Source of the DNA: Naegleria gruberi
Lineage: Eukaryota
Assembly: GCA_000004985.1 (NCBI GenBank)
Contig: GG738861.1
Length of the DNA stretch: 64,000 nt
Reading direction: 5' to 3' (one strand)
Shown here one piece after another: positions 1-42,004 of this stretch; positions within the stretch are counted from its first letter, which is position 1; the number at the start of each line of letters is the position of its first letter. A program made the position numbers and the translations under genes. Under the pieces are notes generated by a model that made no database searches, had not been told where the DNA came from, and saw only the letters and a program-made list of their open reading frames with translations.

Positions 1-555
1 ACCCAAACCCAAACCCAAACCCAAACCCAAACCCAAACCCAAACCCAAACCCAAACCCAAACCCAAACCCAAACCCAAACCCAAACCCAACCACCCAAAC
101 CCAAACCCAAACCCAAACCCAAACCCAAACCCAAACCCAAACCCAAACCCAAACCCAAACCCAAACCCAAACCCAAACCCAAACCCAAACCCAAACCCAA
201 ACCCAAACCCAAACACAAACCCAAACCCAAACCCAAACCCAAACCCAAACCCAAACCCAAACCCAAACCCAAACCCAAACCCAAACCCAAACCCAAACCC
301 AAACCAAAACCCAAACCCAAACCCAAACCCAAACCCAAACCCAAACCCAAACCCAAACCCAAACCCAAACACAAACCCAAACCCAAACCCAAACCCAAAC
401 CCAAACCCAAACCCAAACCCAAACCCAAACCCAAACCCAAACCCAAACCCAAACCCAAACCCAAACCCAAACCCAAACCCAAACCCAAACCCAAACCCAA
501 ACCCAAACCCAAACCCAAACCCAAACCCAAACCCAAACCCAAACCCAAACCCAAT
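1..555. repeat. Telomeric repeat array (CCCAAA)n, G-strand TTTGGG
   Basis: About 92 tandem hexamers run from the window edge, with four variant units (near 86-99 CCAACCACCC, 214 CACAAA, 304 CCAAAA, 371 CACAAA). The C-rich strand reads 5'->3' at the left edge, as expected for a genuine left chromosome end. Confidence 0.9.
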
Positions 556-1860
556 GTAACTTTCCATGCTTCGCTGGCTGGTAGTAGTAATCTTTGAGAA
601 TGCATATTTGTTAACCCTAATATTACTTGATGCTGTTAAACTAAAATCATAATCGAATTGAATCTTGAAATTACCATTTGCCTTATCAGTCCAGAAACAT
701 TTTGGCTCAGTACCAAGCAATGCCAAGTCATCACCGTGAATCAACTTGGAGCATGGAACTGTATTTGCACTGTATGAAGGTGGAGCAAATAATTTGAGGG
801 TAACTCCATCAAATAGTTCATTAATTTGAGCATAAATTTCATTGACATAGCTTGAATTGAATGATCCAAAGTATGTTGCACAGTCACCTCCAAAGTAGCC
901 ATTCATACAATCATTACAAGAAGTTCCATTCCAGTGGCCATTATCTCTATCTTGATAGCAAGAGCATTTTCCAGTAGCGTCACAATTACCATTACCATTA
1001 CAAGTTGTTTGATCATTACAATACATATCACAATTTGACCCATAGTAATTAGTCTTACACTTTTCACAAATAAATCCATCAAAATTGCCTGTACAAACAC
1101 AAGTATTGTTGCTTCCACAAGATCCACCATTCAAACAAGTTGAGTCGGTACAATATCTCTCAGTACATGTTGTACCAGTGTAGGCAGGATGACATGTATT
1201 ACAATCAGATCCATAATAATGGCCATTTATGTGATCATTAACACATGAACAAGTATTGACATCTACACATTGACCATGTCCTGAACAAACATTGGAGCTA
1301 CTCTTTGAAATAGAATTACAATCAAATTGATCACACTTTTCACCATAGTATCCTGAATCACATGCGCATTTTCCAACACCACTTGTAGAATTGATAAAAC
1401 ATTTACCATGATTTGAACAAACTCTAAAATCAGTACTTGAGTAATAATCTTCAACGCCATTATAAATACCTATACAAAGTAAGTTTTCACAAGAATCACC
1501 TGTAATCTTGACTCCATAAATTGACAAGCAGGAACACTTATCAATATCTAAACAAGTACCTCTTCCTGAACAAACTTTTGCATCCATAGAAGAAATGCCA
1601 TAACAAGTTGTGTCTTGATAATCTTGACAATCTTTACCTCCATATCTCAACTGGCATATACACGTGTCAATATCAGTACAAACACCTCTTCCTGAACAAA
1701 CACTTGGATCGAGTGAAGTTTTACCAAAACAAGTTTTAACCTGACAATCTTTATCTCCATATCCATAAGAGCATTGACAATGACCATCTTCAAAACATTT
1801 GCCCTTTCCACTGCAAACAGTTGGATCATCTTGTCTCTTTCCATTACAACTTGTGATATT
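556..1860 (-). pseudogene. Telomere-truncated fragment of an EGF-like repeat surface-protein paralog (3' end lost to the telomere)
   Basis: My own minus-strand translation is stop-free from the gap to the telomere: ...NTCHPAYTGTTCTERYCTDS...VNTCSCVNDHINGHYYGSDC...SSNVCSGHGQCVD...CMNGYFGGDCATYFGSFNSSYVNEIYAQINELFDGVTLKLFAPPSYSANTVPCSKLIHGDDLALLGTEPKCFWTDKANGNFKI...[14 protein letters not shown]. It is colinear with residues ~512-900 of the 2770..8016 protein at roughly 60% identity. The frame reads straight into the TTTGGG repeats with no stop. Confidence 0.6.
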
Positions 1861-1911
1861 ANNNNNNNNNNNNNNNNNNNNNNNNNNNNNNNNNNNNNNN
1901 NNNNNNNNNNN
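1861..1911. other. Assembly gap (51 N)
   Basis: A run of N sits immediately after a ~180-bp tract that is ~99% identical to 6301-6480. Confidence 0.95.
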
Positions 1912-2512
1912 AATTAGAAAAAAATTAAACTTTAATGGTCCACTTATTATGAAAAATATGTTGGAAGGATCAAAAGAACTCTTTGTTTCTGCAAACAACA
2001 ATATTAATATTATTTCAAAATTTCAATCAATATTTATTTATTTAAATAGTGGAAATGAAAAATTAATGGATGATTTAGGAATAATTTTAAATTTAACAAA
2101 AGACAAAGTAAAACAAAAAGGTTATGTTGGATATCTTTATCATAACTATCCAATGTTATTATTTACTAAGAGAAATATTAATTATTCTTCATTTACAAAA
2201 GAAAATTTTAAAGATGTGAAATTATTTTGTGAAAATTATTTTAAATTTAAAATTGACGAATTCGATGGTATTAATGATTGGTGGAAAACTTTGACCACTC
2301 CTGCAGAATACGATGAAGACAAAGATTTAGACGAACACTGTTTTTGTGGAAACCAATTAAATCTATCCAATAGAAGGACTTGTTGTAATTGTCTTGATGG
2401 TATTTGTGAAGGTTGTGTAATTACAAGATTTAATAATTGTATTTATTGTGAGCCAGAGTGTTTGGAAAAGGATCACTTTAATACTCAAGTAGATGAAGAT
2501 GAAAATCAATAA
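1912..2512 (+). CDS. Partial CDS (5' end in the gap): hypothetical protein with a Cys-cluster C-terminus (CFCGNQ...CCNCLDGICEGC...CIYCEPEC)
   Basis: A 200-codon open frame in very AT-rich DNA has Dictyostelium-like codon usage and a TAA stop at 2510-2512. The Cys spacing suggests a zinc-binding module. The family is not recognised. Confidence 0.35.
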
Positions 2513-2769: not shown

Positions 2770-5700
2770 TTATGATAGGTTGGCATAATAAATCACATTC
2801 GGCACTAGATTAAGCCAAAAAAAAAAACATCGGGAATATTCCTCAACAATCATAGAGTAAATTATTGCAACATATTCCGTGGTTTCCATTGTTATAAATG
2901 ATGGAATGCTGATATTAACAAGAATAGTTTTGCTTACACCTTCCATTTCTGTTGGAATGGATGAAATGACAAAGTCTGAGAGATCGGTGAAATAAATCTT
3001 GTCCACTTGGACAGATAAAGAAGAAGTTTGTAAAACAACCGGATCAGCACTCACAGTTTGTTCCTTAACAACTGAATAAGCAAGTTGTTCAGTCACATTA
3101 ACCAATTGATCGTAAATAATGAGTTGTTCAAGAGTTGATGTAATATTTTCAACAGTCTTTTGCAAATTCTCAACAATTGACAAGACAGTTTGACTTGTTT
3201 CAGTTGAAATTTGAAGATTACTCTTAAGTGCTTGGTCAATTACTTCATTCAAAATAGAAATTGACTTATCAATAACTACTGGAACAATAATTTCATCGCA
3301 CTTAATCACAGAATAAACAGCATAAACAACCATTGATAAAGTTGACTCAATTGAGGTTTCCACTCTTGTAGTTTCCACAGCACTTGTAAGTGTACTAAGA
3401 AGTTGAGTTTGAATTTTAGTAATTGTTTCAGAATCTTGATGTTGAACTTGTGGTAAACTTTGCAACAATTGACTTGTTGAAACGATTGTATTAACAGTTT
3501 GTGAAATACTTTCAATTGGATTACCATCTTGAATGATGGCTAAAATGATTTCGGTTGTTTGATTGGACACCCGTTGCCAAATCTCTTCGACTGTGTTTAC
3601 CACAACTGTTGTCACTGTAATATTTGTGAACATGATTCTTGATTCTCCAGATTGGGTATCAGTCAATTCAACGAACCATTTAACAGGTGCAGATTGTGGA
3701 GTATTTGAACAAGAGGATACCACAGCAGGGATTTTAACAGTATCCTCCTTTGAGACTGGTACTTGAATTTTGATTCCAGTGTCACTATCTACATATCCTT
3801 GGGTGATTTGGATAGTATTTCGTTCATTTTGACAATTTACACATAAAACTTTGAATTCTGTTTCCATGGAAACGCCATTAGAAGGTGTAATACTACATGG
3901 ACATTTTTGTGGTTGAGTTCCTTTTGTAATTGTTGTTGAAATTTCGGTAGAAGCAATTTCAATACCATTAACAATATTAGATTCATTTGTTTGAACATAC
4001 GAAACTTTCAATGCAATACTATTTTCAGTTCCTTCATCAAATTCCCTAGCATCAATAATAATAGCACTTTGTGTATTCTTACTCACAACTTGAACATAAC
4101 TTGAAGTTGATAACATTGTGGTTGTCAAAAAAGAATCTCTTGATTCTATTCTTATAGTTTTACTCTCAGAAACAATGGAGTTGTCAATCTTCCATTCAGT
4201 TTTAATAGAAAGTGATGAATCTGATAAATCCTGTTTTGAGTGAGAGACTTCAATGGAAAACTTCTCATCACTTTTGACAACAGATTTAAAGTCTGGAGAA
4301 ATGTCAATAATATTGAGAATCGGAGGAAAATGAACAAAATTCAAAGTAATAGAACATGAAACCTTTCTTTCTCCTTTTGTAATGCTTAGAGTAAAAGTTG
4401 GTTTCTGTAAAGTTGAAACGGAAAAGTCAGATTTGTCAACATTGAAGAGAGTTAAATGATTCTTGGAATGGAAAGACATTTTGTCAACAACACCATCTCC
4501 ACAATAACCACCAGTTTCAGAATTGACACACGACCATTGCCATAATTCAGATTCGTCTGTGTTGTTTTCTGGATCTTGATAATTGACTTGAATTGTTGAT
4601 GAATAATTACTCACTCTCTTCAATGAAAGATAAAGTGAAAGGTCAGGTTGTTCTGTGTAAATTATCACATAATCGCTCGATGATAAACTTGAATTTTGTG
4701 CAGCTGTAATTGAAATTTGGAAAACGAATTTCCACTTTCCCTTAATGAAACTGTCAATAATCAAATTATTGTAAGCGTCCCTCTTGAATGAAAGGGATGG
4801 ACCCTCAATTTGTTCCCATTCAATATTAATTGTTTCATTCTTCAAATGGTCTGGAATTGTAGTTGTCTTTTTGATATGAACCGACTTTTCAGTTGACTTT
4901 TGTCTAATAATCTTACTACCTGAAATTACCACTGAAGGAACTTGATATTCAATAATTTGGAATGTGAAAATATTAATCGAACTGAATTCATTTGTTACTG
5001 TACTTCTCACAACTAGTGTCAACTTGTAAACTCCCAGTTTTAGTAATCCCTTATCAATCTTAATGGTTGCTTGCTTGTTGGATTTTAAGAAATTTTCAAT
5101 AGTTGAATTGATAGAGTTTCCCTCAATCTTCCAAGTATACTCCAGTTCTTTCCTATCTCCAGAGAAAGAGTATGATCCACTAAATATTATATCTTCTGTT
5201 TCACTGTAAATTCTTTTTGATGACTTCACATCAGCAACTGGACTTTTGACAGTATTTGGAGGCATTAAATAAATAATAGTGTCATCTATGATGGTTCTTG
5301 TAGAAAAAGCTCCAAGTTTGTTCAATCTTCTTGTAAGTGTAGTAAATAGATTTCTGTTCACTCTAAACTGGTTTCCTATGACTGACGAAGAGTTTAGAGT
5401 AAAATCATAATCGAACTGAATCTTGAAATCACCGTTTGCCTTATTAATCCAGAAACATTTAAGTTCTGTGCCGAATAATGGTTGATCATCTATGTAAATA
5501 AGTTTTGAACATGGAACAGAGTTTGGTAAATAGGAAGGTGGAGCAAATAGCTTAAATATCACACCATCAAAGTAATCCGTAACCTGAGAATAAATTTCAT
5601 TGACATAGGTTGAGTTGAATGATTCAAAATAAGTAAAACAATCGCTTCCAAAGTAACCAGTCTGACACGAGTTGCATGAGCTACCATTCCAATAACCATT

Positions 5701-8700
5701 CTTGGAATCTGAAAAACAAATACATTGTCCATTGGATCCACATTGACCATGTCCATTACAAGTTGATTGACTATTACAATAGACATTACATTGTGATCCA
5801 TAACTATTGGATTTACAAGTTTCACAAATCAATCCAGTAAAGTTTCCAATACAATCACAGCTATTATCAGTTCCACAAGAGCCACCATTCAAGCAAGTTG
5901 AACCAGTACATGTTTTAACATTACAATTTGGACCAGCATATGCAGGATGACAAATGTTACAATCAGATCCAGAATAGAAACCATTAGCACTATCTCTAAA
6001 ACATGAGCAAGTGTTAATTCCAACACAGTTACCATGTCCTGAGCAAACATTTGAGTTATTCTTGGCAATAGAGTTGCAATTAAACATTTCACACTTATCT
6101 CCGTAATATCCCGCAACACAGGAACATCCTCTTGTTGAGCAGTTACCATGCTTTGAGCAAACTCTATAATCATTGCTTGAATAAAAATCTTCAACATTAT
6201 TGTATACTCCTTTGCAAAGTAAGTTTTCACATTCATCACCAGTAATCTTTATACTGACACCGTTTGATGAAAAACATTGACAGGTGTCAATATCAGTACA
6301 AACACCTCTTCCTGAACAAACACTTGGATCGAGTGAAGTTTTACCAAAACAAGTTTTAACCTGACAATCTTTATCTCCATATCCATAAGAGCATTGACAA
6401 TGACCATCTTCAAAACATTTGCCCTTTCCACTGCAAACAGTTGGATCATCTTGTCTCTTTCCATTACAACTTGTTATATTACATTTAGATCCAAAAAATC
6501 CAATTAAGCATTTACATAAATCATTTCCTATACATTCACCTTTTCCAGAACAAACAACTGTATCTTCAAGACTTGAAATGCCAAAGCATTCAAAAGTTTG
6601 GACTGTAACAGCCGCATTCAATGAACAGTCTGCTCCAAAGTATCCAGCTGTACAATTACACTTATTTAATGAAAGACAATCACCATGTCCACTACAGACC
6701 TGTGATGAATTATATTCAACTCCTGAACATGTGTGGAATTCACATTCCATTCCAAAATATCCGACATTACATGCACATTGATCCACTTGAGAGCAATTAC
6801 CACGGTTTAAACAAGCACCATTTAGACCTTTTCCAAAACAAATTGGTGATGAACAATCTACACCTGCCCAATTTTGATTGCACGTACAATTATTTGGAGA
6901 GTTACATTGACCATGTGAGGAACAAACCAGTGATGAGTTTGAAAGAATATTGAAACATTTTGGGAGAGCACACCAATCTCCTCCGTACATAGTGTTGCAT
7001 TGACAAATACCACCCACACAAGTGCCATTAGATGAACATACTGATGGGTCATCCTTTGAAATGCCATTACATTTGAGTAGTTGACATTGGTTTCCTTCGA
7101 AATTAGGAGAACAGGAACATGTATCAACACCAGAACATGTTCCATGTCCAGAACAAACTGATGTTTCGTTTGACAATTTTCCAAAGCAATATGGGTATTG
7201 ACATTGTGGACCTCCATAGTCTGAGTTACATTGACATGAATCCAATCCAACACATGAACCATGGGAATTGCAAATAGATGAGTCGTTTTGTAAAGTCCCA
7301 TAACATGTTGTAATTGAACAATTAGATCCATAATAATTTGAAGAACATGAACACGAATTATAATCCATACAAATACCATGCCCTGAACAAACACTGGAAT
7401 TGGTTTTTGCTACAAAGTAACAATCAAAATCTTCACAATTAGATCCATAATAATTTGAAAAACATGAACATGAATTAAATGTTGAACATGTACCATATCC
7501 TGAACAAACCTGACTTGAATTAGAAAAGACTCCATTACATGTTGTAATTGAACAATTAGATCCATAGTAATTTGAAGAACATGAACACGAATTATAATCC
7601 ATGCAAATACCATGTCCTGAACAAACACTGGAATTGGTTTTTGCTACAAAGTAACAATCAAAATATTCACAATTAGATCCATAATAATTTGAAAAACATG
7701 AACATGAATTAAATGTTGAACATGTACCATATCCTGAACAAACCTGACTTGAATTAGAAAAGATTCCATTACATGTTGTGACTGAGCAATTGGCACCATA
7801 ATAATTTGATGAGCAGCTACAGGAATTATATGCTGTACAAGTGCCTTGATTAGAACAACCAGTGGTAATAGAGTTTGAATATCCATTACATGTCCAAGAA
7901 GAACAATTTGAATTGAAATAACCAGTTGAACAGAGATTACAATAACCTCCAGCATAATTCACATCACATGCAAGGTAAATTTTTCTGAGTTCATCGATTT
8001 CTGCAATTACCATCAAATTGCTATCGCTGGCAAAAGCTAAGCCTACAAGTGTATTGAACTTGGTATTGGCCAGAGTTTCTCCATCATTAAATGTGCCAGC
8101 ACTATTGCCAGCATATGACGATATTGTGCCCGTGTTAGCATTGGCAGCAGAGGGTGTGAAAAGTTTAAGCGCACCACTGTCAGTGTAGTATACATTACCG
8201 TTGTCGTTTACAAAAAAGTCTTTGATTGATACAGAAGAGGTCTTAATTAAGTTAGTTTAAACATTTGACCCAAAACTTACAGTACAAATTGTTGTAACTG
8301 TTGAAGCTGTGAAAACTTTTAGATAAAAAGTTGAACCGATTTGTTGAAAGTAATATATCTTTCCGTCAGAAGGTCTTATATTAAAAGAAACTAAAAGAAT
8401 TAAAAGAAAATGTCCGATAACTTACATAGTGATGCAATATTTGCTGATGAAGATGCACCATCAGAAGTGGAAGCACCCCCTCCCAAAACAACTTCAATCT
8501 TGCCAGTTAAAGAGTTGATTTTGTAAATGTAACTGTCTAATGCAAAATAGACCTCACCATTGTAATATTTTACATATTTGACAGACTAGAATAAATTGGA
8601 TATTCATTTAATATTCATTCATTTCAATATTATAAAAATACTTACAATAATAGTACAAGCAGTTGGAGTGTTTCCATTAGCACATACTGGTCCAGCTGAT

Positions 8701-10271: not shown

Positions 10272-11599
10272 GTTATTTTTTTGTTAGAGAGGAAACTCGT
10301 ACGGTATAAATACTCCTATTTCTTCACAATCCGTTAACCAGGCTTCACCAACATCTTCATTTTGCGCCTCGTCAAAAAGATGCAACATCCAAACTCGGCA
10401 GTATTACAAGCTGAGCAGAGTACTCTGCCCGGAACACTGTTACAAATAAAGAAGTAACCGTAAATTTAGAGGAGATACTAATTGACGGGTCAAACGGGAC
10501 AAGGCAGCATTAAGATACGGAGCAAGAAAAGTGTTTCAACGAGAATTTTCCTCGCTGTAAGTCAGTCACTTTTATTAAGGATAATACGGCAACAAAGAGC
10601 CAAACCAAATACAACATTCTAAACAATCTTTTATATTTGATATCACACTTATCACTTTGTAAAATTATGCTTCCATCTCAAAGGATAGCAGAGTGTTATA
10701 CTTGGTAGTGTCCCTACTCATGTTAATCAATGTTGTGAATGTTATTTACACTACTCTATTAAGGATTCTTGTAATATTCTCGAACAGGTTAATTTGCTGT
10801 TCAAATCATTGATAAGAGAAAGTTCTCCTATTCCGCAAGTTTATTTGGCCCCAAAGTAGATTTTCATCAAAATCTTCAAAATCGGCACATCTACTTGGTC
10901 ATCACAAAAACCATCTCCAATTAATTGGAGATTGTTCACTGATCAATAGTGTGTGGGGTTGAATTTTGGAAACTTTCTTCGGGTAATTCAGCAAGGCATC
11001 TTCATCATTACTTTCTTCAATAACTATATCATTGTGGAGGTTTCACACTGGCCAGGGCACTAGGAAGATTGTCATAATTATGTGGGGGTGGGTGGGTCGT
11101 GAAAAAAGGATGTCCATAATTACGTGGTCCAGAGTGGGTCAGAAAGTAGAGCAGAGCAAAAACAAAAATTGGCAAAAGTAGAGCCGAAGGTTTATTAGCC
11201 AAGAGTGAGACAGCGTTCAAAGTATCAATTATCACTTGTTCTGCTAGCAACAAGTACTTCTGGGTTCTTGATTGTTTGTGTACCAACAACTTTGGGCAGG
11301 CATTCATCTGGATTGTTATGGTTGAATGTGCTATGGCTGATGTGGAAGGAGGCAAAGGGAGAACTCTCCTCCTGGTACTGATGTTGGTAGTTAGCAGGGT
11401 GGTGATGAAATCATGGGTAATTGTTGTTTGTTGTTTTTTTTGTTGAATATTTAACGGTCAGAACATTCAACTTTCAGCGGTAACATGTGTGAAAAAGCTC
11501 ACATGCAGTGGCCAGGATTTGTTGGGACGATCTTACAGTGAGGTTGGGTGGGTCAAAAAGTGAGGGTCGTAATTATGACAATCTTCCCTAGACCAAGAT

Positions 11600-12180
11600 A
11601 AGAATCAAAAAATATTCACCAAATGGTCCTCTATGGGCATGATGATTTTCGGAGTGGTTTTACATCATGAAACCACCAAACTTTCACATCATCATCTCAA
11701 CATGATCTATATAGTAGTAATAATAGTAATTTTTATTGGTGGATTATCATCATGAAATTGGAATTTATTTTTCATGATGGAAAATCACAATTTGGTGTTC
11801 CATCATCGGATCATTCACCAACCATCATTATTGTTTTCCATCAATATAATAATAGTATTTGTGGAAATTAATTTTTAGTAATGTAATTTTGGTGAAATGT
11901 AAAAATTTTCACTAAATTCATCATCACTGCTGGATCTACTGGACAAGTTGGAAAACTGTCAATGTAGTATTGTTCGGAATGGTCAATAGTAGGTAGGAGA
12001 ACTTTCTCTTATCAATTTTGGTCAAGTTATGATAGGGATAGGTAGATGTGAATTTTGAAAAAGTACATGGATCATAACTCAACATGTACTTCACCAACTT
12101 GAATCATGTCTTTTAGTACTACTATTTAAATAGATAATAAACATCATATTTATTATCAGATTTTCGTCATGTTGTCAATT
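11600..12180 (+). repeat. Dispersed ~0.5-kb non-coding repeat, copy 1 (second copy at 32135..32620)
   Basis: Long stretches are near-identical between the two copies (for example ttttccatcaatataataatagtatttgtggaaattaatttttagtaatgtaattttgg and cactaaatccatcatcactgctg.atctactg.acaagttggaaaactgt.aatgtagtattgttcggaat). Copy 1 carries an extra ~110 bp near 12015-12125. A 23-bp inverted match lies at 10808-10830 versus 11990-12012 (ataggagaactttctcttatcaa). Confidence 0.8.
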
Positions 12181-13197: not shown

Positions 13198-16100
13198 ATG
13201 GCAATAATACAAAGAAGGACTGCAACAATTGCATCCTTGTTGATTATTGTATTATGGTATTGCTTCTGTACTCAACACAGCATTGAGGCGAGTAACCCAA
13301 AAGTAGTGGGTGTCGTATCAACTATTGGAACTGATCAAGATAATGTGAAGACTTTGTATGACTTTGGACCCGATTGGAATGAAGGTACATACGCTTACTG
13401 GGGTGTTTTCAATGGTTTTCAATCAGGAACAATCTTCTTTAATGGTGACACCACCCCATTATTGGCTGGGTTGAATCCATCCAACTATATGTGTGTGGTA
13501 ATGTATTCGTCAAACAAACCCTCAAATGAAATTGTTCAAAAGGGTTGCCTCTATTCATCAAAGCAATTAGATATATTCTCAGCGACTGCATCAGCATACG
13601 GCTTTTATGTTACTGTTAGAAATTTAGGTTCGGTAGTGATGGCTGAGCAAGAATTTCCACCAGGAACATTCATTACAAGATTAAACCTAGAAGCAATAAC
13701 AGTTGAAAATGGGGCCAAAGTTGTTCATTCCAATGCAACCAATTACGTTGCATGGAGTGGTATGGCACGTTTAGATTTCAAGGAAGCTGATTTTTTGGTT
13801 GTGGTTGGTAATGCTCAATGCTCTCTCTCAAGTCAGGATACTGACAAATTAATCTTTGAAGATTCGTCCGAGTTGACTCTTCCACATACATGCGAAATGA
13901 CTTCTTTCGCTGCTCTATACACTGCAACTTATGATTCAATGACCTTGGGAAAAAAGCAAATGATAGAACAAATTAACCAAAGAAGTACATTCATAAAGAA
14001 GGTTATCAAGTCATCTACTACTTCCTTCTGGGTATATGGTAATTTTGTTGACTATACTTTATTTGATAATGAGAGACGCTATGGAAAACAAGCTCCTTTC
14101 TTTAGTTATTATGAAATTGACCCAAGCAATACCCAACCTTTCACACGGAAACACAGTACGTATATTTCTTCGTTTCAACCAACATACTCGGCTGAAGCAA
14201 ACGATATGAAAATAATTCCAGCTGACGGACAAATTGAAATATACATTGTTGGTTATGTGGAAATACCAAGCTCATTTTTATGTTGCTTCTTGAAGATTGG
14301 TACTGCCGAGCCATATCGAGCTAGAAAGCTAGAAATTGAAGGTGATGTAGTATTTACAGGAATAGATACCAACACAAATACTCAAGAAGTAATCGTTACG
14401 GGTCACTTTGCAGGTACAATTCAAATTGGTTCCACCAAATTGACAAGTAGTGGAGGACGAGATATTGTGGTTGCTGCTTTCAAAAGAGTTACTTTAGATG
14501 CTGTTTGGGCTATTAAAGAAGGAGGCTCAAACGATGATTATTCATATGGAATTAAGAATAATAATAATGAATTCATATCAATTTTTGGCAAACTTGGCTT
14601 GAATCCAAAATTTGATGGTAAGAATGTATCTGTTTCTGTGTCAACTGCATCAAACGGATTCATTGCGCATTTATCAGATCCTAATTATTGTTATGGAATT
14701 GCTAGTAATACTGAGACTGTTTGTAATGGTCATGGTCAATGTCAAAAAGATGGCAGTTGCCTTTGTAGTTCAGGTTTTGGAGATCAGTGTGAATTCCCAA
14801 CTTGTAACGAAATACACTTTAATGAAACAAATGTTTGTAATGGGCATGGTAACTGCACTGATTATGATACTTGTTCCTGTAATGATGGATGGACTGGTGC
14901 TAATTGTAATATACCTGTTTGTTTTGGTGTTAGTGAAGGTGAAAGTTGCAGTCAACATGGTTCCTGCATTTCAAATAATACTTGTCAATGTAATAATGGA
15001 TGGTTTGGAAGTAACTGCTCAATTCATTCATGTAATGGAACAAGTTCACAAGATGAGCAAAATATTTGTAATAATGGCAATGGTATATGTGTATCTGCAG
15101 ATATGTGTTCATGTAACCAAAATTGGACAGGTCAATTCTGTGAAATTCCTAAATGTTTTGGATTGAATTCAAGTGATATTTCAGTTTGTTCAAGTCATGG
15201 GCAATGTATTAATGCTAACACTTGTAGTTGTAATAAGGGATGGTTTGGAGCTGATTGTTCAATTCATTCATGTAATGGAACAAGTTCACAAGATGAGCAA
15301 ATCGTTTGTACTAATGGCAATGGTAAATGTGTATCTACAGATATGTGTTTATGCAATCAATATTGGACTGGACAATTCTGTGAAATTCCAAAGTGTTTTG
15401 GATTACCAGCAAACGATTCAAATGTATGTGCTGGTCATGGTAAATGTCTCTCCCCTGATGTTTGTTCTTGTAATCCTAAATGGTTTGGGGCTAAGTGTAA
15501 TTTCCCATCTTGTTTTGGAATTCCATTTTACAATTCTTCAGTTTGTTCCTCCCATGGCCAATGCATAACCTTGGACACATGCAAATGTCTAGATGGATAT
15601 GATGGAGAAACTTGTTCCTCTCATTCATGCTTTGGTTTTAAATCCAATAATGACTCGAGAGCTTGTACGAATGGTCAAGGAAAATGCACAGGTGCTAATC
15701 AATGTACTTGTTTGGAATCCGAAAGTGGAAGAGCAATAGGTCCACAATGTGAAACGATTTTATGTAAGGCAGGAGTTGATATGTGGTTACCACAAAAAGA
15801 TCCAAAAGTTTGTTCTCAACATGGTATATGTAAATTCAACATGTCAACTGTTGGATGTTTTTGTGAGGAAGGTTACGAAGGGCCAATATGTCAGTATCCA
15901 ATCTGCTATGGAATTTCATCGAATTCAAAGAAAGTTTGCAATGGAGTTGGTAAATGTAATGCTCCAAATAACTGTTCATGTTTTGATAATGATATTGATG
16001 GTCACTTTGTTGGAACAAATTGTGACAAGTGTAAAATTCCATACTCTGGAATTAATTGTACTGTTATTGAAAAGTGTAATGCTACATTGAAATGCAATTC

Positions 16101-19100
16101 ACATGGTACATGTGATGACTATGGTTTCTGTACTTGTTTCCAAGACGAAACTAACGGTTATTGGAATGGAACTAATTGTAATACTTGCAATGATGGATTT
16201 TATGGAGAAGATTGCATGACTCAATTGTCCAATGTACATTTCAATAATGAAGGAAATGGATTACTTTTCCAAATGACCTCTCCAAATCATTTCACATCCT
16301 TAAATGTTGATTGTAACAATTTATTAGATTCTTCAAGTATTTCCTCATTTGGTTCAAATGTAGTTTGTAGATATTCTAATAAGACATCCAATGATTTTAT
16401 TATTGAATTGGGAACTGATAATTCTATTCAAGTTGATCAAGAAATTTTATTGAATAGAAATGTGTTTAATAGAAACAAATTAGGAAATGATTATCAATCA
16501 TTCAAAATTGGAAATGCTGAAAATCCCATTCCACCAACAATTTTAATTTCTCAAAAAACAACATATTCAAGTTGTGAAAATATTCTATTGGATGCAAGTG
16601 AAAGTTATTCCACAGATGGAAAACAAATTTCCTATAAATGGGAAATTGTATCTTCCAACATGATGACACTTCCAAACAATAATTCAAGCAAACTGTCAAT
16701 CACCTATGACAGTATAAATGCTGGAAGTCATACTTTCAAACTGACAACTACAAGCCAAAGTTTGAAAACATCCTCATCCAAGCAAATCACATTCCAAAAG
16801 TTGAATTATGCAACACCTGTCATTTCTATTGAAGGAAGTGACAGCCTTTCACTTTCAACAAGCTCATTGCCTTTGATTGTAAGAAAATTAATCACCTTAC
16901 CTTCTTGTTTACCTTCAAAATCTGAAATTATTGTAAAATGGGAATATTTGAGTGGAACTGGAATGGAATATCAAGTTGACTCTACNNNNNNNNNNNNNNN
17001 NNNNNNNNNNNNNNNNNNNNNNNNNNNNNNNNNNNGATGGTTTGGAGCTGATTGTTCAATTCATTCATGTAATGGAACAAGCTCTCAAGATTTACAAAAT
17101 GTTTGTAATGGAGGAAGAGGTCAATGTATTGACACTGATATTTGCTCATGTAATGAAACATGGACAGGTCAATTCTGTGAAATTCCTAAATGTTTTGGAT
17201 GGAATTCAAGTGATAATTCAGTTTGTTCAACTCATGGTCAATGTATTAATGCTAACACTTGTCAGTTGTAATAAGGGATGGTTTGGTAGTAACTGCTCAA
17301 TTCATTCATGTAATGGAACTAGTTCACAAGATGTGCAAAACGTTTGTAATGGAGGAAATGGTCAGTGCATTGGAACAGATTTGTGTTTGTGTAACCAAAA
17401 TTGGGCTGGTCAGTTCTGTACTATTCCTAAATGTTATGGCGTTATTTCTACAGACGCTACAGTTTGCTCTACTCATGGTAACTGTACTGATATTAATACT
17501 TGCCAATGTAATACAGGTTGGTTTGGTCCATTATGTAGTATTCACTCCTGCAATGGAACTAGTTCACAAGATTTAAAACACGTCTGCAATGGTGGTAATG
17601 GAGTATGCATTCAAATGGATAAGTGTGATTGTAAATCTGGTTGGACAGGCCAGTTCTGTGAAATTCCGAAGTGTTTTGGTTTAGCTTCAACTGATAAAAA
17701 AGTGTGTGCTGGTCATGGAGGTTGCATGAGCTCTGATAAATGCTCTTGTAATAATGGATGGTTTGGAGCTGATTGTTCAATTCATTCATGTAATGGAACA
17801 AGCTCTCAAGATTTACAAAATGTTTGTAATGGAGGAAGAGGTCAATGTATTGACACTGATATTTGCTCATGTAATGAAACATGGACAGGTCAATTCTGTG
17901 AAATTCCTAAATGTTTTGGATGGAATTCAAGTGATATTTCAGTTTGTTCAACTCATGGTCAATGTATTAATGCTAACACTTGTAGTTGTAATAAGGGATG
18001 GTTTGGAGCTGATTGTTCAATTCATTCATGTAATGGAACAAGTTCACAAGATGAGCAAATCGTTTGTACTAATGGCAATGGTAAATGTGTATCTACAGAT
18101 ATGTGTTTATGCAATCAATATTGGACTGGACAATTCTGTGAAATTCCAAAGTGTTTTGGATTACCAGCAAACGATTCAAATGTATGTGCTGGTCATGGTA
18201 AATGTCTCTCCCCTGATGTTTGTTCTTGTAATCCTAAATGGTTTGGGGCTAAGTGTAATTTCCCATCTTGTTTTGGAATTCCATTTTACAATTCTTCAGT
18301 TTGTTCCTCCCATGGCCAATGCATAACCTTGGACACATGCAAATGTCTAGATGGATATGATGGAGAAACTTGTTCCTCTCATTCATGCTTTGGTTTTAAA
18401 TCCAATAATGACTCGAGAGCTTGTACGAATGGTCAAGGAAAATGCACAGGTGCTAATCAATGTACTTGTTTGGAATCCGAAAGTGGAAGAGCAATAGGTC
18501 CACAATGTGAAACGATTTTATGTAAGGCAGGAGTTGATATGTGGTTACCACAAAAAGATCCAAAAGTTTGTTCTCAACATGGTATATGTAAATTCAACAT
18601 GTCAACTGTTGGATGTTTTTGTGAGGNNNNNNNNNNNNNNNNNNNNNNNNNNNNNNNNNNNNNNNNNNNNNNNNNNCCAAATGACAGCTAGACCACTAGT
18701 TGTTAACTTGATCCAAATTGAATCAACAATTGACCAAGTAATAATTGAGATTGAAGAAATTGATTCTGATTTGCAAACTATTCCATTCGAAAGAGAATGG
18801 TCCACCAATAATTTGAATAACAATGACAACATATTACAATATCTATCATCTATCAAGAATAATACATTAACAATTACAAAATCATTAGTGAACGGTGCTT
18901 CTCAATTCGACATTTCATTAAGGTCAAGTAAGGTTTCCAGATATTCCACTTCAACTCTCTCCATTTTATTCCCAGAATCTCCTGAACAAATTCCACCTTC
19001 AATAACACCAGCTAACTCGCCTCCATCAAAATTGAATAAGGGAACTTTATTAAGCGTACAAAGTATTGTTTCGAGTGCAAGTAACAATATTATTAGAGAA

Positions 19101-20900
19101 TGGACAATGAATGGTCAATCTATTCCTTCAGAATTGACAAGAAATATGAGAATGCAACTTTCTGAGTCTGACGAATTAATTTTGGACACATCTTCTTTGA
19201 CAGAAGGTGCAACTTATCAAATTTCTTTCAAAGTTACTAATGTTGATTCTTTGTTATCTGCTTCATTGAATCATTCATTTGTAATCAACAAATCACCAAA
19301 ACCATGTGACTGTCAAGTGTCACCTTTGAGTGGTATTGCAATGACAACAATATTTACTTTCAATTGTCCAAAATGTCAAAACGATCAGAATAGTAATACT
19401 TTTGAATATGGTTTTATTGATGACTTTTCAAAATCCAACTTTCCACTTTCTAAAACAGAAGAATTATATCAAAAACTTCCAATGCCAAATTCTGGAAACA
19501 AATTAGATCTTTATGTCAAGGTAATTGATTCATTGACAGGATCTAGCTCCATAACAACCAAACAAGTTACCATTTCTCTTCCGGTTGTCAAAAGTTTAGC
19601 AGGAATCAAAAAGTTAACAGCCTCATGGAACCAAATAGCAACATTGGCTCCTGTTGGTGATTATCAACGAAGTGTTTTCAATACTGCAACCATTTCTAGA
19701 ACAATGAATTTATTATTTAAGAGTATAAGTTCAAAGAGAGATTTTTGTAATGGAAATGGACAATTTAAAGATGGGAAATGTGTTTGCAATTCTGGATTTA
19801 CAACAAGTAATTGTAAATGGTCCACTGAAGATTTTGAATTTATTCAATCTTTAATTAGAGATTTATTGAATGATTTTATGGGTTCAAGTCAAATCATGAC
19901 AACCGCTTCAGAATCAACAAATAGAAATTACATTACAAATTTATTATTTGGATTGAATTCAATTTCACAAAATTCTGAATATCTTTCTAACCAAATGGTC
20001 AACTCTAGTTTAATTTTATTGAGAGATGCTTTGGTATCAGTTCAATCAAGTACCACCTTTGTTCTGTCTAGAGGAGATTTGGTCAACTTGCAAAATATTT
20101 TGAACTTACAAGAAAATTTAATGGATGGTGAAAAATTATTGGAAACTGTTGAATTATTAGGGCAAGTTTTATTGAGAAATGTTTTAATTGGTCAAATACC
20201 ATTTAAATTTGAAACTAACAGTTATTTGACAGTTTTAAACAAACATTTCAAGAATCAAATGAATGGAATGAAATTCGAAAGTGAGATGGTGAATATCACG
20301 TTACCATGGAACATTTCATCTCTCTTGAAAACTAATTCAATCAAGTCACCAATCAAGTACAGATGGAATATTCAAAAAAATACAGACACCATTGCAATTG
20401 CAAATCAACCTGGAAAGATAATATCAATCAATTCAGTTGTGAATAGTTTACAACTTGATCCTTCACCTCAATCTTATTCGAAATACTTATTCGACATTGA
20501 GATGAAACAATACGACAGTCAGGCAGCTTATGTTTGTGCTAACATTGGATCAGCATCATTGGAAACTGATTGTTCCATTTCTATCAAGAATAACCAAATA
20601 GCAACTTGTGAATGCTCTTCATTAGGATATAATCTTGTAATTCTTGAATACAAATCCATTGAAAATCATGTATCAACCTCCTCTTCATCAAATTCAAATA
20701 TAATTGTCAAAAAACCTCCAACGAGCAATCCATTAATGTGGTTATTATTGTTACTAGTCCTCATTCCACTTACTGCCCTACTAATTGCAGTAATTGTATG
20801 GTTTGTAGTAAAGAAACTGGGTAAAGATAAGAATAATACAAGAAATCCATACATGCAAACACAAGAAAGCAGTTCTACAATTGAATTGAAGCATGTTTAA
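13198..20900 (+). CDS. Giant type I membrane glycoprotein: signal peptide, ~430-aa N-terminal domain, more than 20 EGF-like repeats, Ser/Thr-rich stalk, TM helix and short cytoplasmic tail. One gene broken into three ORFs by two assembly gaps
   Basis: ATG at 13198 begins MAIIQRRTATIASLLIIVLWYCFC. ORFs 13198..17271, 16952..18691 and 18507..20900 share architecture and differ in frame only across the N runs at 16986-17035 and 18627-18676. The C-terminus has a TM segment, PLMWLLLLLVLIPLTALLIAVIVWFVV, followed by KKLGKDK... and a TAA stop at 20900. Confidence 0.7.
16986..17035. other. Assembly gap (50 N) inside an EGF tandem-repeat array
   Basis: An N run flanked by near-identical EGF cassettes. 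Confidence 0.95.
18627..18676. other. Assembly gap (50 N)
   Basis: An N run at the end of a ~700-bp block identical to 15170-15880. Confidence 0.95.
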
Positions 20901-21244: not shown

Positions 21245-21585
21245 ATGTTTCCACAACAAGCTCCACGGATTGTGGTAGAGATAAAACTTGGTAACACAGT
21301 TGCTCAATTGTTTCCAGATGGTAGCTTGAGTAATGGTTCAACCAGTATTACTGATTTCAGCGCAGTTGCACTAAACAAGCAAAACAAGCAAGTATGGGGG
21401 TTTGAAAATGACAAAGTTAAAATATTGTGCAATCAAAACCACGTTTGTAGTTATGGTCAAGTCAACCACTTGATAACAGGCAAGGGATTAAATAGGCTTC
21501 GTTCTCTTTACAATCTCGTAATAACAAAATATCTCCAACAACAGCCAAACATCACCGTTCCCAGAACCAATGCTGGTGACACCAN
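21245..21585 (+). CDS. 5' partial CDS of a hypothetical protein, interrupted by a 1020-N gap
   Basis: An ATG-started open frame of 113 codons runs into the gap. No recognisable domain. Confidence 0.3.
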
Positions 21586-22605
21586 NNNNNNNNNNNNNNN
21601 NNNNNNNNNNNNNNNNNNNNNNNNNNNNNNNNNNNNNNNNNNNNNNNNNNNNNNNNNNNNNNNNNNNNNNNNNNNNNNNNNNNNNNNNNNNNNNNNNNNN
21701 NNNNNNNNNNNNNNNNNNNNNNNNNNNNNNNNNNNNNNNNNNNNNNNNNNNNNNNNNNNNNNNNNNNNNNNNNNNNNNNNNNNNNNNNNNNNNNNNNNNN
21801 NNNNNNNNNNNNNNNNNNNNNNNNNNNNNNNNNNNNNNNNNNNNNNNNNNNNNNNNNNNNNNNNNNNNNNNNNNNNNNNNNNNNNNNNNNNNNNNNNNNN
21901 NNNNNNNNNNNNNNNNNNNNNNNNNNNNNNNNNNNNNNNNNNNNNNNNNNNNNNNNNNNNNNNNNNNNNNNNNNNNNNNNNNNNNNNNNNNNNNNNNNNN
22001 NNNNNNNNNNNNNNNNNNNNNNNNNNNNNNNNNNNNNNNNNNNNNNNNNNNNNNNNNNNNNNNNNNNNNNNNNNNNNNNNNNNNNNNNNNNNNNNNNNNN
22101 NNNNNNNNNNNNNNNNNNNNNNNNNNNNNNNNNNNNNNNNNNNNNNNNNNNNNNNNNNNNNNNNNNNNNNNNNNNNNNNNNNNNNNNNNNNNNNNNNNNN
22201 NNNNNNNNNNNNNNNNNNNNNNNNNNNNNNNNNNNNNNNNNNNNNNNNNNNNNNNNNNNNNNNNNNNNNNNNNNNNNNNNNNNNNNNNNNNNNNNNNNNN
22301 NNNNNNNNNNNNNNNNNNNNNNNNNNNNNNNNNNNNNNNNNNNNNNNNNNNNNNNNNNNNNNNNNNNNNNNNNNNNNNNNNNNNNNNNNNNNNNNNNNNN
22401 NNNNNNNNNNNNNNNNNNNNNNNNNNNNNNNNNNNNNNNNNNNNNNNNNNNNNNNNNNNNNNNNNNNNNNNNNNNNNNNNNNNNNNNNNNNNNNNNNNNN
22501 NNNNNNNNNNNNNNNNNNNNNNNNNNNNNNNNNNNNNNNNNNNNNNNNNNNNNNNNNNNNNNNNNNNNNNNNNNNNNNNNNNNNNNNNNNNNNNNNNNNN
22601 NNNNN
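21586..22605. other. Large assembly gap (1020 N)
   Basis: N run. The ORFs predicted across it are artefacts. Confidence 0.95.
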
Positions 22606-23571: not shown

Positions 23572-26500
23572 TTAAAGCATTAACAAGCACATCATGATTG
23601 AAACCAGTAAGGAAACACTGAACGAAATCATTGCAACGTTGTTGACACGAGCTGAAACCTTTGGAATAAAAGGAGCAGGAGAAGATTTTGGAGAGACAAC
23701 AGGTGTTGGAATAGCCTTTGGTTGAGCAGTTAACAAATATTTGCCAGTTGAAGAGACAGAAACAGTTACAGAGTTACTGGTCTTGGAAATGACTGAACAA
23801 CTGGTTGAGAGTTGATAATTATTGGTTGCTGAATTGTAAACTTGACAATAGACATCATATGCAGAAACCGATCTTGCCATTGTTATATCCTTTGAGGTAG
23901 AGAAGGTCAATTCGGCAATAGAACTTGAACTAGAAACGGTAACTGCAGATTTTTCAGCAAGAGAAATATCAAGAGCATCTGAAACAGAGTTGGTGACTCC
24001 GCCACTTGATGATTTTACCTTAAGAATGAGAGTCTTGTAATTAGAAACAAGATCAGAAAATTTAGCTGCCATTTTGAACTTATTTCCATTAATAATATCT
24101 TGTAAATTATTCAAAGTTGCAATATTGACCTTTCTTGAATAAGTAGTTGTTTGATTAGCAACAATATAGTTGGCTGGAAGGTCAGCAACTGTATCCTTAA
24201 CGAGAGCGCTTGATAAACTGTCATACGTAGCTTGAATATTAGTAATATCAGAATTGGAGAATGATCTCTTTGAAACACCCTTTGCTACAATAAATCTATA
24301 GAATTTATCAGCAGCTTCCTTCGCCTTTGTCAACAGTTCAGTAGCCAATTTAACTTCATCACTCGAAGCAGCATTAGCAGCAGTTTGAGCAAGATTGGTG
24401 ATCATCTTGGAAATAATGTCATCGACAATATATTCCAAACTTGAAGTACCAGAAGAAATCATTGACAATTTAGAGGAGGCAGAGTTAGTATTTTCAGAAG
24501 CAACAGATTGAGCCTTTGCTTGATTGTCCAAATAGGAAAGAATCATATTGGAAGTCAATTTTGCAATTTCAGCTTTTTGCTCAGCAGTTGCACCAGCAAT
24601 AGAGCTAACAACCTTAATGACAGCAGATACGGAAGCAAGGGTTGGTGTTTCCTTCGCAGTTGATTCAATAGAATTCACTGCTTGAGTGGTAGTTGGTTGA
24701 GTAACAGCTACAGAAATTTCAGATTCTGTAAATGCCAACTTGGAATCATAAACTGCAACTTTAAGACGGAGTTGAGAACTGCTTGAAGAAGGTAATTTGA
24801 TTCTTGTAGATCTAGTTTCAGTTCTCTCCGTCAATGCAGTCCAAGAGGATGAAATGTCATCATAATAGAAGAATTGATAGGTAAGTGGCAACTGAGAGTC
24901 TGTCCAACCATTTCCACATTTCAATTCGAATAAGGTACTGAGAGCAACACCAGATTGTGGACTAGCTTCGAAAATACCTCTTGTTGGAGGAGAGTTTACA
25001 TTAACACTTGTTGTAGCAACACCATTCTTTGAACCATCAGTAATATTCAAACTAATAGAGTATGAAGCGCCAGCACTCAACAATGATTTTGGAATCTTGA
25101 TAAAGCTGGAAGTTTGGGTGAGTGATGATAAATCAAACTTATCAGAGAACCAGAAGAAGGTTGGAGATGATAAAACTTCAAGAGAGGAATAGGTCAAATA
25201 CAAATCAGATGATGGGCTAACAAGTGAAAGATCGCTATTAGAAGTAATTGAAGCTCTAATCAAAGTATTCTTTGGAACGGACTTAGCTTTAACAATTAAA
25301 TTAGTTGATGCAGATCTTGATCCCTTAACAACAGTAGCAGTATACTTGTATTCACCAGCAGAGAGGAATGTGGAGAAGGTTCTTTGATTTAAATTTGGAG
25401 AAGAACATGACTTAATGTTGACAATATCAAAACATGTGATAGTGACAGTTTCTGAATCAGACGTACTACTTGGATCAACAACTGCAACAGAGAAATCCAA
25501 TGAATCTTGAGTTGATTGAGTAATGTCAGAAATGTTGAATTGAATAGTCAAATCTTGAGCTACAGCAGTTACCTTGAAAGGAAGAAATGCATCGTTAGCA
25601 TTGTCAGAAACAGCCCTAAGGATAAAGTAATAATCGCCTTCCTTATTAATATCAGTGAAGGATTTACCAATAGCGAATAAATTATTACTAGATTTTGGAG
25701 TTACAACTGATTTAGAGGCTGAAGAAGTATCAACAGAATAGGTATAATCAGTTTGATAATTTCCAGAATAACACTTTGGGAATTTGATGACTGGTGTCAA
25801 TACAATAGTAGATCCAATCATGTAAGTCACAGAAATACCTTCACTGAGTGATAGAGTTGGAACTGGATTGCTAACAACATTCACGGTAACACTTGATGTG
25901 GCAACTTTAGAGAATGCAGTTGTGACAGTAACTTGAATAATGAATGATCCACCAGAAATTGCACTCAATGAAGAGGAGCTGAAATCGACAATAGCGCTTG
26001 AAGTTTTAACACCACTCAAGTAAGTATTCAAAGCATTCATTTCACCAACAGTTGGACCGTTAGTGACATACCAAGAGAATAACAATGCACGACGATCTGA
26101 TGAAACTGATCCAGAAGCATCCAAATATAGAGTATCACACTTGGAAACAGAGCTCTTATCAGAAACTAGATTAACACTTGGAGGAAGTGCAACAAATGTA
26201 CCAGAAGAAACTGTAACAGACAATGTTTCAGCGCTTCCTGGGAATTTGAATAATCTCAAAGAATTACCTGGTACAATATTTGCACTGGTTCCTAATATAA
26301 TTTCCAAAGAGGAAGTTGCAGAATTCAAAATACATTTAGCATCAGAACCTATCAATGATAAATCAGAGCTAGAAATGACATCTGAACAATCTGATTGTTT
26401 CAATAAACTTGATTTGACTTCACCAATAATTGACCCACCAGTTGAAGTGAAAACAAAACTATTAGAATTAATTTGGAAATCACAATTGCTTCCAAACCAT

Positions 26501-31250: not shown

Positions 31251-31428
31251 CATCTAATGTTTCACCACAGAAAACATCCTGACATTCCATTGTACCCAAG
31301 AGGTCACATGTCTGGGACAATAAACATTCAGTGTCTGAACTGCATGTTGCTGATACGAGACCAACAGCAGCAATTACAGAAAGTACAATTAAAAGTATTG
31401 TTGTTTTGAACAGCAAGTTACTTGCCAT
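28510..31428 (-). CDS. N-terminal part of the same giant gene: signal peptide plus about 22 tandem 43-aa six-Cys repeats, VKCG.T.EEN.CYGNGTC..G.C.C....NGT(F/Y)CNET, with Pro/Thr/Glu linkers
   Basis: ATG at 31428 begins MASNLLFKTTILLIVLSVIAAVGLVSA, a signal peptide. The repeats are highly regular, about 129 nt each, with three N-glycosylation sequons per unit. Confidence 0.75.
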   Translation of the reverse strand: MASNLLFKTTILLIVLSVIAAVGLVSATCSSDTECLLSQTCDLLGTMECQDVFCGETLDEQSCYSNGNCTRGVCQCSEGFIGLFCNDTITTCGETLEEQNCYGNGTCVDGFCICIEGVNGTFCNETTQEPQVPTQPVNCGFTEDENICYGNGTCVDGLCICNENVNGTFCNETFSMEPQPELVKCGTTEEENNCYGNGTCENGFCTCNEGSNGTFCNETSPVPSQPEPIICGTTQEESNCYGNGTCLDGLCVCIEGANGTFCNETAPEIPTQPEPVKCGFTEDENNCYGNGTCIGGSCICKEGANGTFCNESNIEPEIPQPLQCGETLEENNCYNNGSCVNGFCVCNQDVNGTFCNETNPTEPQVPTQPIKCGETTEENSCYGNGTCVDGLCVCNENINGTFCNETSPDPVVPEPVKCGETIEENTCYGNGTCIEGVCICFIGVNGTFCNETTQDPTQPEPVVKCGSTEEENNCFGNGTCVDGLCVCFENVNGTFCNETTTEPVTPEPEPVKCGETLEENNCYGNGTCLNGICVCDSKVNGTFCNETTPETPIPHPEPVKCGSTMEENNCYGNGTCINGVCACNSNVNGTYCNETNSDSPQPEPIICGTTQEESNCYGNGTCLDGLCICVEGMNGTYCNETTASEPQIPTEPVKCGSTIEENNCYGNGTCMNGICVCITNVNGTFCNETSHEPQPEPVVKCGFTEDENNCYGNGTCLNGVCICNSNINGTYCNETTSAPVTPHPEPIKCGETLEENACYGNGTCVNGICICNSNVNGTFCNETTPETPIPQPEPIKCGSTVEENNCYGNGTCLNGICSCLGGSNGTFCNETIVEPIIPQPEPIKCGTTIEENNCYGNGTCVNGICICNTNVNGTFCNETSETPTPQPEPVVKCGITEYENICYGNGTCINGVCICNSNINGTYCNETNTEPVIPHPEPIKCGETLEENACYGNGTCVNGICICNTTLTEHLQ

Positions 31429-32134
31429 ATTTTTTTCAATTCGAATAGTTTTAGCATGGTAGCTAATAAGATTTTAATGGCAAGGGAATTGTTGTGTGAA
31501 ATGAGCCAACAAGTCACGTTACAATTTCATAGGATATTTGTTGAACAGTGCATTTGCCAAGTACCAACAAGATTAAATTGCTTAAATAAGCCAACAACAT
31601 GTCAACAATCCTCGTCACGGAATTTTCACAATTACGAATTCGTCTTGCATCATCATTCAAGTTGCAATTCCTCACTAAATCACGGGAAACACAGTTTCCT
31701 CTTCTTGCCATAAAGTGACCACATCTTTCACACCTTCTAACATTGGCATTTCCACTTCTGTCCTCACTAAACGAACAAAAGGAAGTTTCCAATGTTTGTG
31801 GATGTAAAATTTCGATGGAGCAAAATTAACTTCCTATTAAGAGTCGTTTTAAATCATGATGAACTTGTCTCATTTCATGTTCAGTATTCATTAGCAACAT
31901 TCAATTCCGAAACGTGATAAAAACTGTAAACTTTTCATCTACAGTTTCTTACTTACTTTCCGAGCCAAATTTTCTCATCAATTCTCCTGGTTAAAGAGGG
32001 GTGGCCGAAGAATTATTGAGGCAACACCATATTTCATCCAACAAACGACAACTACAGTACGGCTCAAACAACAATTATTGGCTGGAAAGAAAGCACCCCT
32101 CAAGATTTAAATGAATTTCAAAGCCGAAAAGATG

Positions 32135-41730: not shown

Positions 41731-42004
41731 TGAAATCTTTAACAAACTTCGAATAGGTTCAAAGTTATTATAGACAAAACTTGGAAATGAACTAAATTAA
41801 TCTTCCCTTAAATCAAAAAGATTCTCATTTACTCTCAAGCCCTTAAATAGTCATCATCAACATGTTGACTCTCTCTCGAATATTCGTCATCACCAACAGC
41901 ACGGAAGTTTAGGATGACGCACAAAAAGATATTATTCGTAAATAATGTACTTATGAATAAAATATATTTGGATCTATTCAAAAGGATCTAAAATAGAAAA
42001 AAAA

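Follow-up and report, generated by a model that had tools for sequence, protein, structure and literature searches.

At the left end of a Naegleria gruberi scaffold, a gene copy cut short by the telomere carries a stretch that is nearly identical to part of a neighbouring paralog. This stretch begins abruptly on one side and runs into an assembly gap on the other. The question that the locus raises is whether the step in identity records an exchange between the two genes, and of what kind, or whether it was produced during cloning, assembly or scaffolding. The window analysed here is a stretch of 64,000 nucleotides of contig GG738861.1 (assembly GCA_000004985.1), with positions counted from its first base. 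The assembly, of strain NEG-M, is one that we take to be the Sanger draft of 2010. The features under discussion are collected in Table 1; the truncated copy is referred to as T, the neighbouring paralog as F and the family member at 13198-20900, which carries EGF modules and a PKD/REJ region, as H.

Table 1. Features of the window, with strand and the basis on which each was defined.
Feature	Position	Strand	Basis and remarks
Telomere	1..554	-	Read directly, with a unit census: ~87 perfect CCCAAA units and four variant units
T, diverged part	556..1663	-	EGF-type modules; translation, BLAST, dS/dN, Pfam
Hybrid EGF module of T	1627..1731	-	T residues 44-78, CFGKTSLDPSVCSGRGVCTDIDTCICQLRYGGKDC; regular-expression module census, protein alignment, codon comparison
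Breakpoint	1660..1664	-	Within the C-x-C motif of an EGF module, ...CSGRGVCTDIDTC/ICQLRYGGKDC...; mismatch list, codon alignment
Near-identical tract	1664..1861	-	197/198 to 6284-6481; last base is the contig end
Assembly gap	1862..1911	.	50 N, directly after base 1861
X gene, ORF between T and F, right of the gap	~1949-2512	+	Plus-strand ORF; protein search made with the ORF at 1913-2509
F, main open frame	2770..8016	-	1748 codons; EGF array, then REJ domain; ORF list, Pfam
Part of F collinear with diverged T	5394..6404	-	BLAST to 6383, extended by codon comparison (own reading)
Twin of the tract in F	6284..6481	-	Residues ~513-578: module F1 and head of module F2
Second perfect tract	17960..18626	+	667 bp, 100% identical to 15202-15868 (gene H); ends at the 50-N gap at 18627
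EGF-module genes	556-1861, 2770-8016, 13198-20900, 23572-28425, 28510-31428		ORF list, Pfam

The G-rich (TTTGGG) strand of the terminal repeat points 5' to 3' towards position 1, the orientation that a true chromosome end should have, and TTTGGG is the candidate telomere repeat of N. gruberi (PMC3622300). The repeat tract at 1-554 and the published repeat together indicate that the window is the left end of a scaffold that starts at a real telomere. Several paralogs lie within tens of kb of this correctly oriented telomere, as expected of a subtelomeric gene family. The view of T and F as subtelomeric paralogs, taken in a preliminary description of the locus, is therefore borne out by a genuine (CCCAAA)n telomere.

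T and F share orientation, which a collapsed twin would demand. F comprises ~17 teneurin/tenascin-type EGF modules and, after them, a REJ domain (Pfam EGF_TEN, 2e-44, 152 bits against a cut-off of 65; EGF_2, 2e-40; REJ, 6e-20, 71.6 bits against a cut-off of 25). Further open frames lie upstream of F in the same orientation, with a signal-peptide-like start near 10271, and the gene probably extends to this start with the upstream frames as putative parts of it. T likewise consists of teneurin/tenascin-type EGF modules, as judged from Pfam matches to EGF_2 (53.5 bits, cut-off 22.1) and EGF_Teneurin. The C3A3 type of telomere had pointed to Paramecium and a ciliate code, a possibility that was rejected, since the long frames of the window are open under the standard genetic code and five proteins are exact matches to N. 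gruberi NEG-M. The minus-strand frame of T (556-1860) is open through all 435 codons and enters the telomere without a stop codon. BLAST aligns T 636-1646 with F 5394-6383 at 71.2% DNA identity, and codon alignment with F over 303 codons outside the near-identical tract gives a dS of 1.35 and a dN of 0.22. The low dN/dS of 0.16, taken with the intact 435-codon frame, shows that T spent most of its history as a functional gene, and its truncation by the telomere must be recent relative to that functional history.

The junction of T with the telomere corresponds to approximately residue 895 of F (>1748 residues). At window positions 1-560 no separate subtelomeric repeat element stands between the T frame and the telomere. 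Overall, the end of T looks like a chromosome break that was healed by the addition of a new telomere within a gene. In this respect it resembles chromosome healing in Plasmodium, ciliates and yeast, where telomere repeats likewise abut an interrupted sequence; here they abut the stop-less frame of T. Healing concerns the other end of T, however, and not the tract, and the T-telomere junction could be old. Elsewhere in T, a 60-base patch at 643-702 is 92% identical to F (55/60) as against 71% for the rest, with only two synonymous differences and the protein pattern KCFW..KANG.FKIQFDYDF. It may reflect an earlier, short conversion or a segment under strong constraint.

The near-identical tract differs sharply from its surroundings. 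Mapped at an offset of 4620, positions 1664-1861 differ from F only at 1855 (G vs T), and BLAST aligns 1660-1861 with 6280-6481 at 99.0% identity with two mismatches and no gap, the second mismatch lying at 1663. Both differences are synonymous (ATC/ATA, Ile, at 1855; ACG/ACC, third position, at 1663), and across the 67 codons of the tract dS is 0.05 and dN is 0. The longest mismatch-free run is 191 bases, a length reached in none of 20,000 permutations of the mismatch positions (mean 22, maximum 64), and the probability of at least 197 matches in 198 at a background identity of 71% is ~3e-28. Chance was ruled out by these two results as the cause of the identity step. Purifying selection alone was also ruled out as the cause of the tract, the synonymous sites being identical too. 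The dS of 0.05 within the tract, set against 1.35 outside it, requires a recent transfer of sequence between T and F.

The preliminary description had placed the tract at 1681-1860 and 6301-6480, with a 1-nt indel at its boundary, a sharp drop in identity and 60-70% identity for the rest of T. The near identity holds (197/198), as does the sharp boundary (99.5% vs 71%), and the measured 71.2% over 636-1646 agrees with the figure for the rest; the coordinates, however, are to be corrected to 1664-1861 and 6284-6481, and the indel is absent at either end, both from the offset alignment and from the gap-free BLAST alignment. The adjoining gap, previously given as 51 N, counts 50 N.

Only the left boundary of the tract, at 1663/1664, lies within the assembly; the right boundary is absent from it, the 50 N following directly after 1861. 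The length of 198 bp is thus a minimum, because the tract reaches the last base of its contig. There are four N runs in the window, of which three hold 50 N each (1862-1911, 16986-17035 and 18627-18676) and the fourth holds 1021 (21585-22605). The identical length of three of the four suggests that 50 N is probably a placeholder and not a measured size.

At the join on the left side of the tract, the two parental registers have in common only the Cys codon TGT at 1660-1662 (3 bases). To the left, 12 of the 22 bases at 1642-1663 are mismatched at the offset of the tract, and in either register this flank matches F at ~70%. The join keeps the reading frame. It does not keep the module register: the part of F that is collinear with diverged T (to ~6383-6404) overlaps the twin of the tract by ~100-120 bp, the tract restarting at 6284, and F 6284-6404 occurs twice in T, at ~1540-1663 with ~70% identity and at 1664-1784 with 100% identity. 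At the protein level this appears as a net insertion of 40 residues in T relative to F, which is one EGF module. The modules of T run in the order F1 (identical), a hybrid of the F2 head (identical) with the tail of T's own equivalent of F1, and T3, which is a ~60-70% counterpart of the whole of F2.

The tail of the hybrid module is ~75% identical to the tail of F1. Indeed, in our own reading of the codon comparison between the T2 tail and the F1 tail, the T segment ICQLRYGGKDCQ matches the F segment QCSYGYGDKDCQ at 27 of 36 bases. The hybrid is a canonical module of 35 residues, with the length and cysteine spacing that prevail among the modules of F, H and the gene at 23572, and a census of modules by regular expression, which covered T, F, H and G, found at least 20 others in the family like it. 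The genes at 13198 and 23572, compared as outgroups for the extra module of T, proved too diverged.

The nature of this join bears on whether it could have been made in the laboratory. A false overlap would require tens of identical bases on both sides; here 3 shared bases and a left flank of ~70% identity allow none, so that the junction must lie within one physical read or more. No stretch long enough for a false read overlap is shared at 1660-1662. The idea that the tract is foreign to the T locus, brought in by a chimeric clone or read, by recombination of a clone in E. coli or by a false join of the assembler, draws on the position of the tract at a contig end, which perhaps a single read covers, on the gap that it abuts and the scaffolding errors that can be demonstrated nearby, and on the 1855 mismatch, which could be a read-end error. 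Random ligation, however, would have to pick the neighbouring paralog from a genome of ~41 Mb, and in matching orientation, and a random join would give the right frame and the right module point in only about 1 in 100 cases by our estimate. There is no long homology at the join on which recombination of a clone in E. coli could have acted, and library hosts are normally recA-deficient. Moreover, both differences between T and F, at 1663 and 1855, are synonymous, a hint that the tract stems from a locus of its own and not from F reads used a second time. An artefactual origin of the tract is accordingly very unlikely. The breakpoint at 1663/1664 is very probably real, a judgement reasoned from the sequence. 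Of the mis-join raised early on as an alternative to conversion, the pasted-in tract is contradicted by the 3 shared bases and by the preserved frame and module position, while the caution about the gap was well placed, given a mis-scaffolded contig nearby.

That contig (17036-18626) stands between two of the 50-N gaps, and contains the second perfect tract of Table 1. The 213 bases that precede 17960 are 84% identical to H, and nothing further left is collinear. The frame of H halts at 16985 ('...EYQVDS') and resumes as REJ-type sequence at 18677, and the intervening contig encodes EGF modules amid the PKD/REJ region of H, with a frame shift near 17265. The first bases after the second gap, 17036-17333, are 97% identical to 17757-18053. 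The contig is clearly misplaced, and almost certainly represents a repeat boundary or a haplotype that was wrongly scaffolded. Both perfect or near-perfect tracts, of 667 and 198 bp, run to gap edges, and both are presumably shorter than a Sanger read, as would follow if reads with an anchor in unique flanking sequence had carried a contig some way into a repeat that the assembler left unresolved. Orphan contigs from such boundaries would then have been placed in whichever gap was nearest. In this respect the locus resembles the collapsed repeats of Sanger drafts: the tract continues as far as the contig's final base, is below read length and stops at one of four gaps, three of which are fixed at 50 N, and the second case, 667 bp at 100% identity, stands in an impossible place inside H. 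A collapse of this kind, for which read depth and mate pairs are the normal proof, is here proposed from the sequence. The assembly breaks, and misplaces contigs, at near-identical repeats. The same pattern of a perfect tract running to a gap renders the adjacency of contig 1-1861 to the sequence from 1912 onward insecure.

With the breakpoint very probably real, it can be asked what kind of exchange produced it. A patch replaced in register by gene conversion would leave the number of modules unchanged; T carries one extra module, and a simple in-place conversion patch is disfavoured because it would not add one. Recombination shifted by one module fits the doubling of F 6284-6404 and the extra EGF module of T better than a short patch does. 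The reading that we favour, and to which we give about an even chance, is that 1663/1664 would be a real ectopic, module-shifted recombination breakpoint between subtelomeric members of the EGF-repeat/REJ family, and that F-type identity would extend into the gap. The ~180-bp gene conversion of the preliminary description is thus retained as a recent ectopic exchange, and set aside as a tract with two boundaries and as a replacement in register.

If the favoured reading is correct, the sequence to the left of 1663/1664 would be the 3' part of an old, diverged paralog, T, itself cut by the telomere, and that to the right would be F-type sequence, joined at the C-x-C motif with a shift of one EGF module. 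The join would leave T with an extra, hybrid module composed of the F2 head and the tail of T's F1-equivalent. The event may have been a crossover, break-induced copying, or conversion that halted where module-type homology ends, and the mechanism that we infer is unequal ectopic recombination among subtelomeric genes of a family built from module arrays. It could have taken either of two routes. By the first, a T-type paralog would have exchanged sequence with F, or with a recent twin of F, through a misaligned crossover or break-induced copying; everything 5' of the join would then be F-type, and a join of microhomology scale would be needed. By the second, T would already have had an extra module with an F2-like head, and conversion by F would have stopped at the end of homology, in which case no illegitimate joining would be needed. 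On the favoured reading, identity to F would continue past 1861 for longer than a read, the reads concerned would have been merged into the single F contig, and the 50-N spacer would carry no information; the contig would end within the tract since a Sanger assembler could not resolve the near-identical repeat. Indeed, a repeat of 198 bp should have been read through, so that the real extent of the tract probably exceeds a read length.

Tandem module duplications within F and H indicate that module-shifted exchanges are common in the EGF/REJ family. F contains a tandem duplication (7298-7596 vs 7532-7830) that is 93.6% identical with a period of 234 bp, which corresponds to two EGF modules or 78 residues, and H contains a two-module tandem at 14976-15164 vs 15216-15404. 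The T join shares several features with unequal crossing-over in tandem-module proteins, such as the EGF arrays of tenascin, teneurin and Notch or the repeats of yeast adhesins: it is in frame, it falls at an equivalent module position, it changes the module count by one, and the same genes carry two-module tandem duplications. It differs from sister or allelic unequal crossing-over in that the exchange would have taken place between paralogs of 71% identity, with almost no identity at the exchange point.

Three observations weigh against the favoured reading. First, position 1855, six bases from the contig end, could mark where a short patch really ends on the right; at 71% identity, the probability of six more matches after 1855 is ~0.13. 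Second, if the 50-N gap is a small estimated distance, it leaves no room for a long F-type continuation. Third, the near-absence of microhomology at the breakpoint is unusual for homologous recombination, and requires either conversion that ended at a homology boundary or a microhomology/template-switch event.

The first two of these points also enter the main competing account, a short-patch ectopic gene conversion in which ~190-200 bp were copied between F and T, the scaffold order is right and the contig stops simply because coverage near the telomere gives out. Tracts of a few hundred bp are usual for gene conversion, and the sharp left boundary, the dS near 0 within the tract, the possible right edge at 1855 and a gap of 50 N, which suggests that the contigs lie close together, would all fit such an event. 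The right boundary is nevertheless not observed, and the tract is shifted by one module, which a patch could accommodate only if T had previously gained a further module whose head resembled that of F2. Furthermore, an assembly built from Sanger reads of roughly 700 bp should pass through a repeat of 198 bp unbroken, and the same pattern of a perfect tract running to a gap recurs at the clearly misplaced contig 17036-18626. A short patch is, on this evidence, possible but rather doubtful.

The favoured module-shifted exchange also has a variant in which the whole of contig 1-1861 belongs elsewhere, namely to the other homologue or to another chromosome, where an F-type gene recombined with a T-type paralog and was capped by a telomere. 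The scaffolder would then have chosen the nearest free position since the mates map to the single assembled F. The small contig 17036-18626 shows exactly such behaviour, T and F are co-oriented and the tract reaches the contig end; moreover, Naegleria has been described as a heterozygous diploid (PMC9928731). Against this, T is ~29% diverged from F and so is no allele of it, and an extra step of translocation or ectopic exchange would be needed. We regard a misplacement of this kind as unlikely. A paralog of 1912-2770, sought near the region upstream of F as a sign of segmental duplication, was not found, and a protein search with the ORF at 1913-2509 returned no homolog.

Comparison with sequences outside the window was made with the proteins, with the junction itself and with assembled reads. 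With T as query, the protein collection returned no match that exceeded 46% identity, and matches at that level spanned at most a quarter of T; by this search, neither T nor F was found in other assemblies. Metagenomes were scanned for the junction as a 24-base string and, separately, for a degenerate pattern that encodes CSGRGVCTDIDT, with 0 matches in both cases, and exact-protein look-ups with the ORF beside the gap and with other genes found no independent assembly of the junction. Naegleria contigs in ENA ERZ929261 (run ERR1078381) and Logan SRR3922091 are 94-97% identical to the window, and this identity indicates that they derive from other strains, close relatives of NEG-M; they cover the actin region and 41446-42598, not the T/F locus. 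Nanopore reads and a Flye re-assembly of N. gruberi exist (PMC12695648).

The same searches bear on the annotation of the chromosome end. In the first ~32 kb, protein searches with T and with the ORF at 1913-2509 gave no N. gruberi self-match, even though T should hit F, and the 972-residue gene at 28510-31428 had no exact match among GenBank proteins. Genes from 32.8 kb onward, starting with an actin gene, match GenBank entries exactly; five predicted proteins at 35-63 kb are identical to NEG-M entries EFC45734, EFC45735, EFC45850, EFC45851 and EFC45853, all of them on one scaffold of 507,294 bp. The public N. gruberi protein set thus appears to be without gene models in window 1-32000.

Some further features of the window were recorded. 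Two actin genes (32747-34306 and 40164-41710) lie inverted, ~6 kb apart, and are 96.4% identical over 1.56 kb including flanks; their proteins of 377 residues are identical to each other and to N. gruberi actin. A gene at 42738-44138 encodes a beta-CASP/metallo-beta-lactamase protein of RNA-processing type, whose closest named relatives are those of Naegleria fowleri (80%) and Willaertia (68%) and whose next closest are bacterial (Acidobacteriota and others, 35-40%). Among its best 120 matches, most of them without a name, there was no other named eukaryote, and the matches listed held no N. gruberi entry. Heterolobosea may have acquired the gene from bacteria long ago. A dispersed direct repeat of ~0.5 kb (11595-12173 and 32129-32608) is 85-97% identical between copies, with no long open frame seen.

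The arrangement at this chromosome end is reminiscent of Plasmodium var, Trypanosoma VSG, Giardia VSP and yeast FLO genes, in that paralogs for cysteine-rich surface proteins are clustered beside a telomere, form a mosaic that ranges from saturated synonymous divergence to near identity, and include a truncated copy at the very end. The differences are equally clear. N. gruberi is a heterolobosean amoeba that lives free, and antigenic variation is neither known nor implied as a role of these genes; its proteins are unrelated EGF-module/REJ receptors, and only one breakpoint is visible.

For the use of the genome sequence, the immediate consequence is that the first ~20 kb of this N. gruberi scaffold contain at least one misplaced contig and one insecure join. 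These two features, together with the N. gruberi protein entries that are absent for the first ~32 kb, are the reason why copy number and gene structure of the EGF/REJ family should not be taken from the NEG-M draft assembly. Taken by itself, the junction is an ordinary phenomenon of a well-known kind, a routine feature half hidden by a gap of the 2010 draft. A more far-reaching possibility, which we offer only tentatively and consider improbable as matters stand, is that the EGF-module/REJ receptor genes at N. gruberi chromosome ends would be actively reshuffled by module-shifted ectopic recombination and truncated by new telomeres. By analogy with the families named above, it is conceivable, and again rather doubtful, that this would amount to a subtelomeric diversity-generating system of the kind found in parasites, here in a free-living amoeba. 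If so, it would have left three traces within 20 kb, namely the 1663/1664 junction, the perfect 667-bp tract at 17960-18626 and the open frame capped by the telomere. Were several exchanges and a telomere-capped gene to prove true, they would constitute the first described hint that Naegleria subtelomeres are recombination-prone nurseries of surface genes, and would bear on how free-living amoebae diversify their adhesion or prey-recognition receptors.
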